From Candidatus Anstonellaceae archaeon (lineage in GTDB: Archaea; Micrarchaeota; Micrarchaeia; Anstonellales; Anstonellaceae): DNA of 32,648 nucleotides. Location: the NCBI GenBank assembly GCA_038824715.1, contig JAWBPP010000005.1, forward strand, positions 1 to 32,648. Direction: 5' to 3'. Positions 2,984 through 18,783 of the stretch are shown here, one piece after another. The position numbers and the translations under genes were made by a program. The notes beneath the pieces were generated by a model that saw nothing but the letters and a program-made list of their open reading frames with translations, was not told the DNA's origin and made no database searches. The first letter of the stretch is position 1, and every line of letters begins with the position of its first letter.

Positions 2984-3946
2984 CTACGGAGAAGAAGGTT
3001 GCTGCGCCGATGCTTGTTCCGGTTTGGAAACATCTCCGTTTATCGCCCCTGACACGTATTCCGGAAGGTTGAGCGATGCCGGGAAGAAGTCCCTGATGGA
3101 CTCCGGAACAGTGCTCCTTATCTGGCTTATCCTGTGGTTTATGAGCTTCCATATGCCCGCAATATCGTTGGACTGCGATTTGTTGAGAAGCGTTTCGTCC
3201 CCGCTGCTTTTCAATTCGGATTCATAGCCGAACTCTGCTGCAAGGCCAAGGCCGATTTGCTGCACTAGGCCGCGTATGGCATCGCGGACTTTTCCTTCCT
3301 CCTTGAAAAATACCTGCAGCTTCTCATCGCGCTTTTGGCGAATCCTGTGTTTTGTCCATTCGGAAAGCTTGGAGATTCCTGCGCTTATGGCAGCCATTGC
3401 CCCGAGGCCGAAGAAGTCTGCAGCTGCCTTTGCCAGGTTCACAAAGTCTTTGGAGACTGTTTTGTCTATGTAAGCCATCAGGTCATTCCATGCGCCAGTA
3501 TAAACTGCCCCGACCGCCACAGCGGGACCAGCAAGCCAAGGCGCCCATTTCTTGAGGTTTTCCCAGACGTTTCCTGCGGCAATCTTCGAATTGCTGTAAA
3601 CGGTTATTTCATTCACTTTGGCATGCCATATTTCCTGCATCGACTGGAACGAATTGGTAAGGTTGCAGATGTGCGCGAACAGTGCAGATACGTAATCGGA
3701 AGTTTTCTGAAGCTCAGCCAAGCGCTCTTTGTCAGGCGCATCTTTCTTTCTCTCCGCGTTGTAATCCGCAAGGGTCTGTGACTGCAATTCTCTGAGTTCT
3801 TCGTAGAATATGTTTGCGCGCCCCTTCTTGTCTGGCTTGGACGAAGTCAGGTCAAGTATGTTGTCTGCATAAGGAAGAAGCTTGTACATTGGAACGGGCG
3901 CTTTCTTGGCAGCCTGAACCTGACTAGTGGCCTGTGCCTGCAGCAT
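2984..3946 (-). CDS. Orphan coiled-coil protein with a central two-helix hydrophobic hairpin
   Basis: Start reassigned to ATG 3946 (MLQAQATSQ) behind GGTGGAGGGA; the longer track ORF overlaps the ABCE1 start. Hydrophobic WAPWLAGPAVAVGAVYTGAW and AAADFFGLGAMAAISAGIS. Confidence 0.8.
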   Translation of the reverse strand: MLQAQATSQVQAAKKAPVPMYKLLPYADNILDLTSSKPDKKGRANIFYEELRELQSQTLADYNAERKKDAPDKERLAELQKTSDYVSALFAHICNLTNSFQSMQEIWHAKVNEITVYSNSKIAAGNVWENLKKWAPWLAGPAVAVGAVYTGAWNDLMAYIDKTVSKDFVNLAKAAADFFGLGAMAAISAGISKLSEWTKHRIRQKRDEKLQVFFKEEGKVRDAIRGLVQQIGLGLAAEFGYESELKSSGDETLLNKSQSNDIAGIWKLINHRISQIRSTVPESIRDFFPASLNLPEYVSGAINGDVSKPEQASAQQPSSP

Positions 3947-4088
3947 GTTTTCCCTCCACCCCGATATGAGCAAGATCTGGCTAGAAGTGTATTTAAACCT
4001 ATCTTTACATTTTGAACAACAACGATAGGAAAATTGGGGAAGGAACGGTAATAAACAAGCATGGGAGAATACCCAGCAGGAGAAGAGC

Positions 4089-5864
4089 ATGGCGGATTTT
4101 TTCGGGAAAACAAGGATAGCCATAATTGACCGCGAGAAGTGCCTCAAGGAAAAATGCGGCTACATCTGCATGAAAGTCTGCCCGGGCGTGAGAATGGGCG
4201 ACGACACGGTGACGGTTGACTCTGACGGTTTCCCGGTGATTTCAGAAGAGCTTTGCACAGGCTGCGGGATTTGCCCGAAAAAATGCCCTGTCGACTGCAT
4301 CACCATAATCAATTTGGCAGAGGAGAAGACGCATCCGATTTATCAGTATGGCGAAAACACATTCAGGCTTTACGGATTGCCGCTTCCGCAGGACGGTGTT
4401 GTGGGGTTGGTTGGAAAGAACGGCATAGGGAAGAGCACGGCAATAAAGCTCATGGCTGCACAAATCCACCCGAACTTTGCGGACTTTGAAACCAAGTGGA
4501 AGCCCGAAGAAATCCTTGAGAGGCTCTCGCCAGACATGAGGAATTATTTCCGCTCAATTCAGGATAAGAGGCTGAAGGTCTCGCTCAAGCCGCAGAACAT
4601 TTACAAAATACCGGAAGTGTTCAGGGGCAAGGCAAAGGCGCTTCTTGCCAAAGGCGACGAGCGCAAGATGATGGCGCATGCAGTGGAATTGTTCGCGCTT
4701 TCAGATGTGCTTGAGAGGAATGTCTTTGAGCTTTCAGGAGGCGAGCTTCAGCGGCTTGCAATTGCAGTTGCATTCTGCAAGGATGCGGACCTTTACTATT
4801 TTGACGAGCCTGCCGCTTACCTTGACATAAAGCAGAGATTGGCAATGGCGCGAGCGCTCAAGGAATTGTCTGAAAGCAAGCGCGTGGTCGTCATTGAGCA
4901 CGACCTTGCGATATTTGACTATCTTTCAGAATATGTCCACGTGCTTTACGGGCAGGAGAATGCGTACGGAGTTGTCTCCGGAGTGAAAAGTGCGCGAAGC
5001 GGAATAAACGAGTATTTGGACGGGTTCCTGAAGGACGAGAACACGCGCTTTAGGGACCACTCCATAAGATTCTCAGCGACCTCGGCAGCACAGGTCAAGG
5101 CAAGCACAGCATCCAAGTTTTCCTATCCTGCCTTGCAGAAAAAATTCGACAAGTTTTCCTTTGCAGCAGAAGAGGGCAGCATAATGGAAGGAGAAGTGAT
5201 AGGCATGCTTGGTGAAAACGCGATTGGAAAGTCGCTTTTCATCCGCATGCTTGCAGGCATTGAGCAGCCTGACAACGCAAAAATGCTTTCTGCCCTCCGT
5301 ATCTCCTACAAGCCGCAGCAGGTGAAAGCTGACAGCAGCGAAGAAGTTAGGGAACTTTTTGCAGCAGCAGGGCTGGACCCGTTCGTTGCCGAGCAGGCGC
5401 GGCGGAAACTGAATGTGAATTCGCTTATGGACAAGAAGGTGAATACCCTCTCGGGGGGAGAGATGCAGCGCGTGGCAATTGCGCTTGCGATTTCCAAGGA
5501 TGCTGACATTTACCTTTTTGACGAGCCATCTGCGTTTTTGGACATCGAGCAGAGGCTGGAGTTTGCTGACCTTGTGCAGTCAGTAATACCTGAAAGCAAG
5601 AAATGCGCGTTTGTCATTGACCACGACTTGCTGCTTCTTGACGCCGTTTCTTCCCGGGCGATAATTTTTGACGGAAAGCCCTCTGTGCAGGGGCACGCAA
5701 GCGCCCCAAAGAACAAGCGGGAGGGCATGAACGGATTTTTGAAGTCAGTCGGGATCACCCTTCGCCGCGACAAGGATTCAAAAAGGCCGAGGATAAACAA
5801 GCCTGGCTCAGCGCTTGACAGGGAGCAAAAGGAGGCTGGCGAATTCTACTATTACGAAAATTAG
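4089..5864 (+). CDS. rli1: Ribosome recycling ATPase ABCE1/Rli1
   Basis: N-terminal 2x[4Fe-4S] Cys clusters (CLKEKCGYICMKVCP; CTGCGICPKKCP), two ABC domains (GKNGIGKS, LSGGELQR; GENAIGKS, LSGGEMQR) and the C-terminal RPRINKPGS..DREQK motif. Confidence 0.98.
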   Translation: MADFFGKTRIAIIDREKCLKEKCGYICMKVCPGVRMGDDTVTVDSDGFPVISEELCTGCGICPKKCPVDCITIINLAEEKTHPIYQYGENTFRLYGLPLPQDGVVGLVGKNGIGKSTAIKLMAAQIHPNFADFETKWKPEEILERLSPDMRNYFRSIQDKRLKVSLKPQNIYKIPEVFRGKAKALLAKGDERKMMAHAVELFALSDVLERNVFELSGGELQRLAIAVAFCKDADLYYFDEPAAYLDIKQRLAMARALKELSESKRVVVIEHDLAIFDYLSEYVHVLYGQENAYGVVSGVKSARSGINEYLDGFLKDENTRFRDHSIRFSATSAAQVKASTASKFSYPALQKKFDKFSFAAEEGSIMEGEVIGMLGENAIGKSLFIRMLAGIEQPDNAKMLSALRISYKPQQVKADSSEEVRELFAAAGLDPFVAEQARRKLNVNSLMDKKVNTLSGGEMQRVAIALAISKDADIYLFDEPSAFLDIEQRLEFADLVQSVIPESKKCAFVIDHDLLLLDAVSSRAIIFDGKPSVQGHASAPKNKREGMNGFLKSVGITLRRDKDSKRPRINKPGSALDREQKEAGEFYYYEN

Positions 5865-13052: not shown

Positions 13053-13095
13053 GTCTTCTTTCTTTTCCGATTTTTTTATTTTCAGGTGATTGCAG

Positions 13096-14406
13096 ATGCA
13101 GGTTATAGGAAAACAGGCAACGAAGACTGCAAAGCTGCTAGCGGACCAAAGGACAGCTGAAAGGCTCAAGGCATTCGGCGACGAAGCACGAAGACATGGC
13201 ATGATTTCAAGGTCCAGCGGAGCTTATTTTCTTGGCAGGGACAGGGAAGGCGCAGCGGTTGAAACAAGAAGCATCGCGGCCTTTCCCATCGTGGTTGACA
13301 AGTGGTATGTCCAGATGGGCTTCAAGCAGGAGGACGCAGATTGGCTGGAAGGGAAATCCCCAAAGGAGATTGAAAATGCCCTCATGAAAACAGGGATACC
13401 GAGGAAGATGAAGAGCTTTGCCCTGCACATAATTCCAGCTGTAAGGTTGCTTGCGCACATAAGCGAAAGCTACGATAATGAAATACGCAAGACTGAGATT
13501 GCGCTTGGGAAGCTAGATAAGCTCAATGCTTCGCTTGCAGAAAAGAAAACGCACACTGATGCAGATATCAAGGAAGCGATAGAAAAACTTCGGGAAATTG
13601 GAGAGGGCTTTCTTGCCTTCAAGCGCGTGGCTGTGAAAAGGATTGTGGCAATGGAAAGGCTAGAGCAGACAGCAAGGATGCTCGATGAATCCCTTAAGCT
13701 GGAAGGAGGCAAGCGCGAAATGCAGGTCAGCAGGGCATGCGCTGTCTTTACTGCATTGCGAAACAGGCTTGGGCAGTGGCGCGACAGGCAGATTGCAGGC
13801 ATATCTGAGCACAACCACCGGAAGGAATATGCCCTTCGGGCGCTTCGGGACGAGTGGCTTCTTTCGCAGCTTGCGCGATTCGCGGAAATTCCGGAAAAAA
13901 TCCATGGCTATCTTCTTGCTGACAGAGAAAAGCTACGTGTGCTTGATGAAATACGCAGGCTGCTTAAGGACGGAAACAAGAGCGGCGCGCTTGAATGCAT
14001 GGAAAAGCACAAGGCACTATTCCGCGTAAGCGAGAGGGAAAGGAAAGGCGTCGAGGAGCGGATTGCGCTCATGGAAGAGGGCAGGAAGCCGCCTGAAGAA
14101 AAAGGCAGGAAAAGCGATTACCAGATAGGGCATTACGCATGGCTTTACATTTATGCCAGGGATGGCGACCTGAAGAATGCTGAGAGGAAACTAGGCGAGC
14201 TCGCCGTGTTTGTGAACGCAAACAAGCCTAGATTCTTACTTGACGAGCTGAAAAAATCAAACGAGCCGTATCTTGCCGGAGTGGTTGGGGCGCTTGAGGA
14301 AGGAGTTGCTTCTTTTGAATCGCAGGATTTCGCGATTGCCAAGTCTCATTTCACCAAGGCAAGGAACCTAATGCGTAAAATCGTGAATCCGACTGCAAAA
14401 GTCTGA
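13096..14406 (+). CDS. Orphan alpha-helical/coiled-coil protein
   Basis: Long ORF, GGTGA RBS 7 nt before ATG 13096; K/E/R/L/A-rich with no recognisable motif. Confidence 0.8.
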   Translation: MQVIGKQATKTAKLLADQRTAERLKAFGDEARRHGMISRSSGAYFLGRDREGAAVETRSIAAFPIVVDKWYVQMGFKQEDADWLEGKSPKEIENALMKTGIPRKMKSFALHIIPAVRLLAHISESYDNEIRKTEIALGKLDKLNASLAEKKTHTDADIKEAIEKLREIGEGFLAFKRVAVKRIVAMERLEQTARMLDESLKLEGGKREMQVSRACAVFTALRNRLGQWRDRQIAGISEHNHRKEYALRALRDEWLLSQLARFAEIPEKIHGYLLADREKLRVLDEIRRLLKDGNKSGALECMEKHKALFRVSERERKGVEERIALMEEGRKPPEEKGRKSDYQIGHYAWLYIYARDGDLKNAERKLGELAVFVNANKPRFLLDELKKSNEPYLAGVVGALEEGVASFESQDFAIAKSHFTKARNLMRKIVNPTAKV

Positions 14407-16271: not shown

Positions 16272-16883
16272 TTACTCAATACCTGTCTCCTTCTTACGTA
16301 GTTTCTGTTTCTCTGAGCCTTCTTCCCAAGCACGTATGTCTTCCTTTCTGAGCCGTTCTAGCTCCTCTCTTTTTACAACCTCCCCCTCTCCTTCCTTCAG
16401 CAGTTCTTTATTGAGATTGAAGGCTTCTATCAGTGCCAATGCTTCCTTTTTGTTGCCAGCTTCAACCTCAGCCCTTACCTGTTCCTCAGCCGCTTCTACT
16501 ACCGCCGGCGCAAGGCCGATTCCCTCCCTTTTGACTGCTCTTGCATAGACAAGAAGCTCCTTGGTAAAGGCCCCTTCAGCATAGTCAATATCGCCGTCAG
16601 CATTGATAAATGGGCTCAGATAAGGCTGATGTTTTACCCTCAGCCTATCATAGAGGCTGTCCATTCTCTGGTTCTCAGGTTTCCCCTCTTTATCAATATT
16701 CTCGTAGAGGTTTTTTAGGCACCAGGCGCCATCAAGCTTCTCAATCTTAGCCTTCTCAGCCAGCACCTTGAGTCTTTCAAATTTCGTTCTGCGGACTATT
16801 TTGAAGAACCGGAATTTCGGTGCGACCTCCTCCAGGCCATGCTCCTTCACGCTGTTCTTAGTCAGTATTTTTATTCCAGCCAT
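16272..16883 (-). CDS. Orphan protein; N-terminal module shared with 17652-17918
   Basis: GGAGGTGA RBS; KILTKxxVKEHGLExVxPKFxFFKIV module followed by a charged helical C-terminus. Confidence 0.8.
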   Translation of the reverse strand: MAGIKILTKNSVKEHGLEEVAPKFRFFKIVRRTKFERLKVLAEKAKIEKLDGAWCLKNLYENIDKEGKPENQRMDSLYDRLRVKHQPYLSPFINADGDIDYAEGAFTKELLVYARAVKREGIGLAPAVVEAAEEQVRAEVEAGNKKEALALIEAFNLNKELLKEGEGEVVKREELERLRKEDIRAWEEGSEKQKLRKKETGIE

Positions 16884-16895
16884 TCAAATCACCTC

Positions 16896-17588
16896 CTAAA
16901 ATACTGCCGTGCTCAGGCTGACTCTGAACTGCAGCGTGCCTGAGCCGCCAGAGAGCAGCCATGCCTGCCGCGCCTCGCCAGAGACAGTTATCTTTCCTAC
17001 AGTGGCATTGGTGTTGAAGTCGATTGCAAATTTCTGCAGCTTGCCATCCCATCCGATTACTGCCCCACCGAGAGTCACCCCTTCGAATGGCAGCTTTCCG
17101 TAAGCCACCCAGAAGCCCTTGCTAACATCTATGCCGATTTTTGCTCCAAGACCCTTGACTGCCATTCCGAATGTGGCATCAGGCGCCTTGAAGTACAGGT
17201 CACGATAAACATAGGGAATAACCGTGAAACTCCCTGCAGGGAGAGCTGCCCAAATGCTTGCCTCCTCGCATTTTATTGCGCTGCCTTCCTTCAATCCAGT
17301 AAAGGTGATGCCTGCCGCAACTTTTCTTACCTCAATGCCTGTGTCAAAGCCAAGCCCAGCCCCCTCGCTTTTTCCGCCCTCATAGACGCGAACTACTGCC
17401 TTTGCGGAAAGGGAGGGCTTGAGTGCAATTTCATCGGCTGTCTTGATAGTGTCCTTTTCCTGCGCGAAAAGCGGAGCAGCCACAAGAGGGGAGATTTTTA
17501 CAAATGCCTTGGTGAGCCCCCAGGCTGCCTTAAAGAATTTTTTCGTTTTTTGGAATTTTTGAGGTTTGCATGCTTCGGTTGCCATCAT
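16896..17588 (-). CDS. Orphan secreted beta-strand-rich protein resembling a transmembrane beta-barrel
   Basis: GAGGTGGTG RBS; basic N-region then ...LVAAPLFA|QE cleavage-like site; alternating hydrophobic/polar Gly-rich strands; ends in LQFRVSLSTAVF. Confidence 0.75.
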   Translation of the reverse strand: MMATEACKPQKFQKTKKFFKAAWGLTKAFVKISPLVAAPLFAQEKDTIKTADEIALKPSLSAKAVVRVYEGGKSEGAGLGFDTGIEVRKVAAGITFTGLKEGSAIKCEEASIWAALPAGSFTVIPYVYRDLYFKAPDATFGMAVKGLGAKIGIDVSKGFWVAYGKLPFEGVTLGGAVIGWDGKLQKFAIDFNTNATVGKITVSGEARQAWLLSGGSGTLQFRVSLSTAVF

Positions 17589-17941
17589 CTTCACCACCTC
17601 TTATTGTTTTTTGAAGTTTTCTTTTCAGCCCATTGGTATTCGCTATACCATCTATTCCCTGTGAGTGCTGGCATAGTCAAGTGCGCTCTGAATCGCCTCC
17701 TCGTTCCTTCCGAGTAGGGCGAGAACCGCGGTCTTCTTATCAGGGTGAACAAGGCCCAGGTTGAAATTCTTGTCAAATTTAGTGATAGTTTCAGCCAGGG
17801 TCTTGTAGTCTTCAAACGTCTTTTTGCTGACTATTTTGAAGAACCAGAACTTGGGAACTACATGCTCGAGTCCATGCTCCTTCACAGCTTTCTTCGTCAA
17901 TATCTTCTTCATCTCCATCTTCACCACCTCTTATTGTTTTT
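17586..17941. repeat. 26-bp exact direct repeat of the RBS/start cassette (17586-17611 and 17916-17941)
   Basis: CATCTTCACCACCTCTTATTGTTTTT occurs twice, 330 bp apart; it reads AAAAACAATAAGAGGTGGTGAAGATG on the coding strand. Confidence 0.9.
17652..17918 (-). CDS. Small orphan protein; N-terminal module shared with 16272-16883
   Basis: Same RBS cassette as the next gene; 27 of 39 residues identical to the N-terminus of 16272-16883. Confidence 0.78.
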   Translation of the reverse strand: MEMKKILTKKAVKEHGLEHVVPKFWFFKIVSKKTFEDYKTLAETITKFDKNFNLGLVHPDKKTAVLALLGRNEEAIQSALDYASTHRE

Positions 17942-18015
17942 CTTTCTGGCAATTCATGTCGTTAAGGATGTATTAATAATCTTGCACACCACTACTAGTA
18001 GAGCAATGTGGCTTT

Positions 18016-18783
18016 ATGGCGGGCAAGGCGCTAAGACAGCTTTCTGAGGCAGGGCTTACCGAGGGCGAGGCGAGAGTATATCTTGCTCTTTTGGAGCTTG
18101 GGCCTTCCACAACAGGCCCCATCGTCGAAAAGTCGGGCGTGGCAAGGTCGATAATATATCAAATACTCGAAAGGCTGGCGCAGAAGGGGCTGGTTTCCTC
18201 TGTTACGAAGGAGAAAACCGCTTATTTCCAGGCAGCGCAGCCCGACAGGCTGCTTGAGTATATGGAGGAGAGGCAGAAAGGGCTGGAGGAAAGCAAGCGC
18301 AAGCTGCAGGAGCTGCTCCCGAAACTGGCTGGGATGCAGACAAGCGCAAAGGAGAGCGAGGTGCAGGTATTCACAGGCTTTAGGGGCATGATTTCTGTGC
18401 ACGAGCACACTTACCAGAAATTGGCAAAGGGCGAGGAATACTTTTTCTTCGGGATTCCGCAGGAGCAGCCCAAGCACTATCATGCTTATTGGCAGAGGGA
18501 CCATATTCGAAGAGCGAGAGCTGGAATTCGCTGCAAGCTGCTATTTCACCCTAAAACCCCCAGAGAGGTGCTGAAGAATCGCAACTCATATGCTGGCTGC
18601 GACGCTAGATACATGCCGATAGAGGTGAATACGCCGGCATGGTTCATGGGCTACAAGAATGTCGCTGTGATTGGGTTTGCCTCGGAAAGCCCGATAACGA
18701 TTGAAATTGTGAACCGGCAGGTAGCAGACTCGTTCCGCTCCTATTTTGAGGAGTTTTGGAAGGACAGCACGAGATTCAAGTAG
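18016..18783 (+). CDS. TrmB-family transcriptional regulator
   Basis: GLTEGEARVYLALLELG...IYQILERLAQKGLV winged HTH plus a PLD-like effector domain ending FRSYFEEFWK. Confidence 0.92.
   Translation: MAGKALRQLSEAGLTEGEARVYLALLELGPSTTGPIVEKSGVARSIIYQILERLAQKGLVSSVTKEKTAYFQAAQPDRLLEYMEERQKGLEESKRKLQELLPKLAGMQTSAKESEVQVFTGFRGMISVHEHTYQKLAKGEEYFFFGIPQEQPKHYHAYWQRDHIRRARAGIRCKLLFHPKTPREVLKNRNSYAGCDARYMPIEVNTPAWFMGYKNVAVIGFASESPITIEIVNRQVADSFRSYFEEFWKDSTRFK

Follow-up and report, generated by a model that had tools for sequence, protein, structure and literature searches.

In this study, we describe a regulated archaeal gene whose product is predicted to be an exported beta-barrel of the outer-membrane type, in a lineage in which no machine for installing such a protein was found. 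The gene occupies positions 16896-17588 on the minus strand of the window, that is, the whole stretch of 32,648 nucleotides analysed from a Candidatus Anstonellaceae archaeon (contig JAWBPP010000005.1). Its 230-residue product (P0001) comprises an extended signal peptide (residues 1-42; 17463-17588, minus strand) and a barrel domain of 12 strands (residues 56-230; 16899-17423, minus strand). From the open reading frame, AlphaFold2 modelling, structure searches and conservation, the mature part very probably folds as a compact 12-stranded membrane-type beta-barrel of the transmembrane kind. As judged from its sequence, P0001 is outside every named family and appears to represent a fold class that is already known, here in a domain of life where it was not expected.

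The gene starts at an ATG at 17588 that is preceded by a ribosome-binding site (GGTGGTG), and its GC content of 0.52 is the same as that of the genome (0.99 Mb, 69.6% complete). A spurious open reading frame at 16896-17588 was ruled out by conservation. Products passing the NCBIfam cut-offs in the window are pelota, RLI, Hjc, archaeal DnaG and Sm; the close relatives of P0001 are labelled Candidatus Micrarchaeota, and orthologues stand in syntenic Micrarchaeota loci. The archaeal context assumed by the first-pass annotation is thereby upheld, and contamination or a bacterial contig is ruled out. Elsewhere in the source genome are genes for SecY, the ATP synthase c subunit and an S-layer-domain protein.

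The N-region of the leader is amphipathic and, as noted at first pass, long and basic, with eight Lys/Arg residues against one Asp/Glu in residues 1-31. The h-region (ISPLVAAPLFA) is weak, with a mean hydropathy of 1.86, and the cleavage site, between LFA and QE, was assigned by eye and from the alignment. P0001 is devoid of a transmembrane helix, since all of its 19-residue hydropathy windows lie at or below 1.27. A profile of the signal peptide gave no second match below E 0.1 among the open reading frames of the source genome. With regard to Tat export, the alignment shows no conserved RR motif, and a search of the genome, which is 70% complete, did not find TatC. AglB/STT3 was not found there either, for which reason the low sequon density (0.57 versus 1.58 per 100 amino acids) is not counted as evidence. 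The same extended type of signal leads the all-beta proteins L069, L070 and L074 and the non-barrel proteins L071-L073, with no Pfam match in the five that were scanned; for two soluble proteins bearing this signal type, a TonB-like interpretation found no support.

Mature P0001 contains 13.8% Gly, and residues 56-230 have a beta-periodic hydrophobic moment of 1.13, a value that none of 1000 shuffles attained (0.79 +/- 0.09), which agrees with the Gly-rich amphipathic strands reported earlier. AlphaFold2, applied to the mature chain with 30 sequences, returned a 12-strand meander over residues 56-228 (pLDDT 94.5, pTM 0.85), with about 13 mature residues before strand 1 and no passenger domain. 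The five strand segments picked out at first pass were all located (residues 78-87, 121-130, 149-156, 159-166 and 200-207), each inside a predicted strand. All five even-numbered connectors, which lie on one side of the barrel, are two residues long, and the odd-numbered ones on the opposite side are 4, 2, 4, 2, 2 and 6 residues long, a modest asymmetry. The conserved residues of the barrel are K63, R67, Y69, G78, G80, E108, Y126, Y128, G141, E154, W180 and R222. A second model, of a distant family member with 22 distant sequences, likewise has 12 strands (pLDDT 89.5); its alignment shares seven of the 22 sequences with that of the first model, so that independence between the two is incomplete. 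The profiles of the close group (A2) and the distant group (A6) have no sequence in common and are linked by HHalign at 99.1%, partly via the signal.

The P0001 model was searched against 48,161 solved chains, and the best 16 structural matches are 12-stranded membrane barrels (Z 15.3-10.9), one of them designed. The highest score was obtained with AIDA-I (4mee; Z 15.3, rmsd 3.2, 163 aligned residues), followed by COG4313 (4rl8; Z 15.1), BrkA, VhGalP (8xua) and FapF (Z 15.0), NanC (2wjr; Z 14.7), KdgM (Z 14.0) and PcoB (Z 10.9), and the best soluble barrel reached Z 9.2. The second model gave Z 18.7 with EstA and 18.5 with KdgM. Alignments of the predicted fold to 12-stranded barrels cover 153-170 of 188 residues at rmsd 2.7-4.5. 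Foldseek ranked invasin, intimin and porins first, and the Atlas model of P0001 matched Gcw_chp/CopB-type barrels (TM 0.55-0.66). The barrel reading of the first-pass annotation is therefore supported by two AlphaFold2 models from different alignments, by structure searches and by face-specific conservation, all of which agree, and the soluble sandwich or open sheet that it had named as the contrary outcome is absent from the AlphaFold2 and structure-search results. Two barrel scores were less informative: in the first, built from residue propensities, helical membrane proteins swamped the ranking, and the second was trained on the barrel family, so that the top rank of P0001 is circular.

Soluble proteins conserve their hydrophobic core, and membrane barrels conserve their lumen. 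In the 21-sequence alignment, ten of 35 polar-face positions but none of 44 hydrophobic-face positions are conserved at 70% or above (rank test p 6e-5), the faces having been assigned by eye from the P0001 strands and the positions not being independent; with 37 sequences the counts are five of 35 and none of 44 (p 0.009). Gly makes up 19% and charged residues 25% of the polar face, compared with 2% charged residues on the hydrophobic face, a partly circular measure. Since the polar face is conserved and the aliphatic face variable, the pattern is the inside-out one of a membrane pore. We infer barrel closure and an outward aliphatic lipid belt from structural matches and conservation, not from coordinates.

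The beta-signal motif rule requires a terminal aromatic residue in register with the lipid face. The last strand of P0001 has a hydrophobic face formed by L219-F221-V223-L225-T227-V229, and the C-terminal residue is indeed Phe, as first annotated, but F230 falls on the polar-face parity of strand 12 and is thus out of register. When family members were split by profile distance, nine of the 22 close members end in Phe, Trp or Tyr and five are in register, and there are members with a final Pro, Lys, Asn or Arg; 12 of the 15 distant members end in Phe, Trp or Tyr and 13 are in register (for example QAGVEYEF and QIGTEYTF). The background among 974 open reading frames of the source genome is 80 and 16, respectively. 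Because 13 of 15 distant but five of 22 close members are in register, the beta-signal-like end would be a family trait that decayed in the branch of P0001, and of the earlier claim the terminal Phe stands whereas its role as a BAM beta-signal is, from the sequence, a weak proposition.

A single-sequence search with P0001 matched seven of 61 related genomes, the source genome included, and phmmer returned 20 representatives among 1.84 billion proteins, 17 of which were kept (208-262 amino acids); P0018, P0020 and P0021 (1089-3721 amino acids, many short stretches) were left out as repeat noise, P0018 alone having been inspected. Of the 401 genomes of the phylum, 14 were matched by a 21-sequence profile; each of these belongs to one of three families of the source order, and none is among the 258 genomes of families f13-f31. 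A 30-sequence profile matched 28 of the 176 genomes of the order; six of these matches cover the signal peptide alone and were set aside, which leaves the barrel family patchily distributed over 24 loci in 22 of 176 genomes. Searches with the close alignment yielded three loci in metagenomes, two in genomes and none on viral contigs. Restriction to Micrarchaeota holds as far as the search extends, since most matches from beyond the set of genomes are without taxonomic assignment. No Pfam, NCBIfam, PHROGs or PDB sequence family was found for P0001: among 30 members scanned at E 0.1, Pfam gave no KdgM match and its best barrel hint was OMP_b-brl in one member (E 0.0097), and the PDB sequence search gave no match below E 0.1. 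The full-text literature, with most subscription papers and supplements outside reach, was searched without finding such a family described. The words porin, barrel and outer membrane do not occur in the accessible part of PMC12892359, nor do porin and outer membrane in the accessible part of an archaeal domain census (PMC13607799); such domains may appear in the supplements of that census. The portion available of PMC12228718 mentions, for Altiarchaeales, a possible relative of PopA.

The barrel gene faces a divergent gene for a TrmB-family regulator (18016-18783, plus strand; Pfam PF01978, E 4.8e-17), which is likely to be its local controller. A divergent TrmB- or Lrp-like regulator stands within 1.5 kb upstream at 20 of the 24 family loci, one of the misses having 487 bases of sequence; two regulator queries (TrmB and Lrp) match seven of the 974 open reading frames of the source genome, and kin loci are not independent. 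The common intergenic region (17919-18015) holds a TATA-like element, TTATTAATA (17971-17979, minus strand), which is kept in all four aligned loci and which we presume, from the archaeal consensus, to be a TATA element. A palindrome, CTACTAGTAG (window 17990-17999), lies between the regulator and this element, is partly kept in three other loci and is a possible operator.

Two orphan genes flank the barrel gene. That between the promoter and the barrel gene (17652-17918, minus strand) encodes 88 amino acids and is missing from the G007 locus; its first 50 residues duplicate the start of the second orphan and its leader duplicates the barrel-gene leader. The second (16272-16883, minus strand), directly downstream, encodes 203 amino acids without a signal peptide and, being found in two of 176 genomes, is not a general partner; 10% of its synonymous codons differ from the G007 orthologue against 46-57% in its neighbours, which hints at recent exchange. 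At the site beside DUF2797 in other genomes of the genus, the regulator and barrel are absent in 19 informative regions (20 examined, by eye), and in 13 of those 19 the glycosyltransferase is directly next. This absence makes the regulator and barrel unit an accessory islet. The genes up- and downstream of the barrel gene vary among loci and indicate no substrate. The signal peptide is more conserved than the barrel domain: identity to the G007 orthologue is 81% for the signal and 55% for the barrel, compared with 78-82% for TrmB, the glycosyltransferase and the 203-residue product, and synonymous change is of similar extent, at 57% for the barrel, 46% for TrmB and 56% for the glycosyltransferase. 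Between P0003 and P0001, 73% of the signal and 21-25% of the barrel are kept.

Several further features of these loci were recorded. At the TrmB-ThiL site of one genus, one genome has a barrel gene (L004:1207-2073) where a second has a gene for another all-beta protein (L021:1371-2186) bearing a related signal, suggestive of cassette exchange, and genes for class I SAM-dependent methyltransferases adjoin the barrel gene at L014, L062 and L075. Within the window, adjacent orphans of 421 and 387 amino acids (1568-2833 and 2984-4147, minus strand) have a central hydrophobic hairpin, charged helical flanks and no Pfam match. A second variable spot lies beside dnaG (13090-14406, plus strand), where the orphan genes differ between genus members (L023, L024, L028, L032, L034 and L036).

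Omp85/BamA (PF01103) was not found in any of the 176 genomes of the order, 63 of which are at least 90% complete, by a search that detected it in seven diderm bacteria as a control. This accords with the first-pass premise that archaea lack BAM; a very divergent insertase in the order is possible. TamB and POTRA were not found in the five barrel-bearing genomes that are more than 90% complete. Large orphans were observed in two regions: at G000:C24:2504-5905 (minus strand; L045), a 1133-residue orphan with no clear signal, whose last approximately 200 residues score as amphipathic strands, has a weak relative in G022; at G000:C15:2601-12037 (minus strand; L046), orphans of 975, 1315, 567 and 294 amino acids stand in a run, and that of 1315 has a Gly/aromatic beta-rich C-terminal half and weak relatives in G042, G050 and G034. 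These relatives thus occur in one and three other genomes of 176; G022 and G042 carry the barrel family and G050 the variant.

Among characterized proteins, the small specific porins KdgM (4pr7), NanC and VhGalP are among the closest, sharing with P0001 12 strands, a comparable length (171-210 residues), a signal peptide, a charged polar face and the lack of a passenger (Z 14.0-15.0 to the P0001 model and 17.1-18.5 to the distant-relative model). The lumen of KdgM is a basic ladder. That of P0001 has both acidic and basic conserved residues; identity is 6-10%, there is no Pfam match, and P0001 is encoded in an archaeon without detectable BamA. The beta-domains of autotransporters and of intimin/invasin (AIDA-I, BrkA 3qq2, NalP 1uyo, EstA 3kvn and intimin 5g26) have the same 12-stranded geometry (Z 13.8-15.3), and some autotransporters carry extended signal peptides. 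P0001 differs from them in having no passenger, no predicted pore helix, a barrel of 175 residues and shorter strands, at 5-11% identity. COG4313/FapF, Tsx, PcoB/CopB and Gcw_chp are, like P0001, 12-stranded monomeric-type channels (Z 10.9-15.1; Atlas TM 0.55-0.66), with no sequence match. Phage genomes, which have no outer membrane of their own, carry barrel genes meant for the host membrane, according to the part available of 10.64898/2026.10.24.761521. The nearest Atlas feature matches of P0001 are phage clusters (0.88-0.89), a lead only. Phage barrels are produced within the host cell, whose Sec and BAM they employ directly, whereas the gene of P0001 is chromosomal with an archaeal-type promoter, has no viral-contig relative in the search with the close alignment and has no PHROG match.

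The account that we favour, which taken whole has somewhat less than an even chance of being right, is that P0001 may be a small-solute channel acting in the membrane of a partner cell. It would be expressed when the TrmB-type regulator allows, would exit unfolded, either via Sec or by a pathway that depends on cell contact and recognises the unusual signal peptide, and would insert into a lipid bilayer with its hydrophobic face outward. The lumen residues K63, R67, E108, E154, K165, E205 and R222, together with Y126/Y128, may form a selective path for small polar solutes. The target would be a partner membrane, most plausibly the outer membrane of a diderm bacterium during attachment, where P0001 would provide solute access or a docking point. 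A pore in the membrane of the archaeon itself would be costly, because the ATP synthase c subunit implies an energised membrane and the pore is unplugged. A partner membrane is favoured by this cost, by the S-layer and patchiness, which disfavour a standing outer membrane, and by a surface that evolves fast while the atypical signal is conserved, which fits a host-facing protein. The lack of detectable Omp85 in 176 of 176 genomes, the in-register ends of 13 of 15 distant members and the identity of 55% in the mature part versus 81% in the signal are counted, all as indirect evidence, for a foreign membrane, as is the failure of the signal profile to match a second open reading frame of the source genome below E 0.1. 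Strict BAM selection is disfavoured in the close branch, since five of 22 members are in register and several end in Pro, Lys, Asn or Arg. In bacteria and mitochondria, single-chain membrane barrels are bound up with outer membranes that have an insertase of the Omp85 type, and BAM takes its substrates from the periplasm (PMC8292188, accessible portion); the archaeon would therefore need a delivery route, a gene for which was not identified. In a more specific version, which we consider unlikely, the extended signal would direct the chain, still unfolded, to a Gram-negative bacterium in attachment with the archaeon, where the BAM of the bacterium or spontaneous insertion would install it as a private channel or dock. 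If true, this Micrarchaeota order would have bacterial hosts and would edit their outer membrane. The Micrarchaeota hosts named in the available parts of PMC11329633 and PMC8975820 are archaea, and the source lineage may be only partly host-dependent (PMC12892359, as far as accessible).

The barrel might instead reside in the cytoplasmic membrane of the archaeon, inserted from outside after Sec export, either unassisted or by an unrecognised archaeal insertase, and serve as a narrow or gated uptake channel. This arrangement requires neither a partner nor a delivery machine, and SecY is encoded in the genome; some barrels self-insert into liposomes (PMC13018214, part available), the regulator-plus-transporter layout fits nutrient-controlled uptake, and close relatives have lost the in-register end, as would suit barrels that do not depend on BAM. 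However, the ATP synthase c subunit together with short loops and no plug would lead one to expect an ion leak, and the belt would be thin, given strands of 8-15 residues, and we regard this location as doubtful. A second, outer membrane of the archaeon, in which the barrels would act as porins put in place by machinery so divergent that it escapes detection, is rather improbable. In its favour, two membranes have been described for ARMAN cells (PMC4243693, accessible part), the large orphans of C24:2504-5905 and the C15 operon have barrel-like C-termini, and related signal peptides are found on the all-beta proteins L021, L069, L070 and L074. Against these observations stand Omp85 in none of 176 genomes, TamB and POTRA in none of the five barrel-bearing genomes above 90% completeness, the S-layer-domain protein and a family present in 22 of 176 genomes; moreover, an S-layer has replaced the two-membrane reading for cultured Micrarchaeota (10.1101/2021.04.28.441871 and PMC11329633, in the parts available). 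The accessible text of PMC11329633 describes an S-layer, nanotubes and a 21-nm barrel-shaped dock, far larger than P0001, and that of 10.64898/2026.09.08.750209 counts Ignicoccus alone as diderm.

A soluble secreted barrel, its aliphatic face inside and carrying a lipid or another hydrophobic ligand, is very unlikely. Soluble barrels and LolA-like sheets do match at Z 8-9, and the direction of the side chains is deduced via conservation, not coordinates; yet the scores of 12-stranded membrane barrels exceed these by about 6 Z units, and a variable aliphatic face with a conserved polar face of 19% Gly is the reverse of a soluble core. Least probable of all is a membrane-damaging or competition protein directed at neighbouring cells in place of a nutrient channel, for although a fast-evolving mature domain on a conserved signal in a variable islet would fit it, there is no conserved immunity-like neighbour (the 203-residue gene being in two of 176 genomes), the conserved charged lumen suggests selectivity and a single-chain closed barrel is, to our knowledge, not the architecture of known pore-forming toxins.

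Given a regulated and conserved barrel family in S-layer-bearing archaea in which Omp85 is not detectable, one of three unusual conclusions must follow: the barrels are delivered across domains to a bacterial host, the archaea have a second membrane that has gone unrecognised, or barrels sit in the archaeal cytoplasmic membrane without the help of an insertase. P0001 makes the hosts and envelopes of uncultured archaea testable in E. coli and in liposomes.
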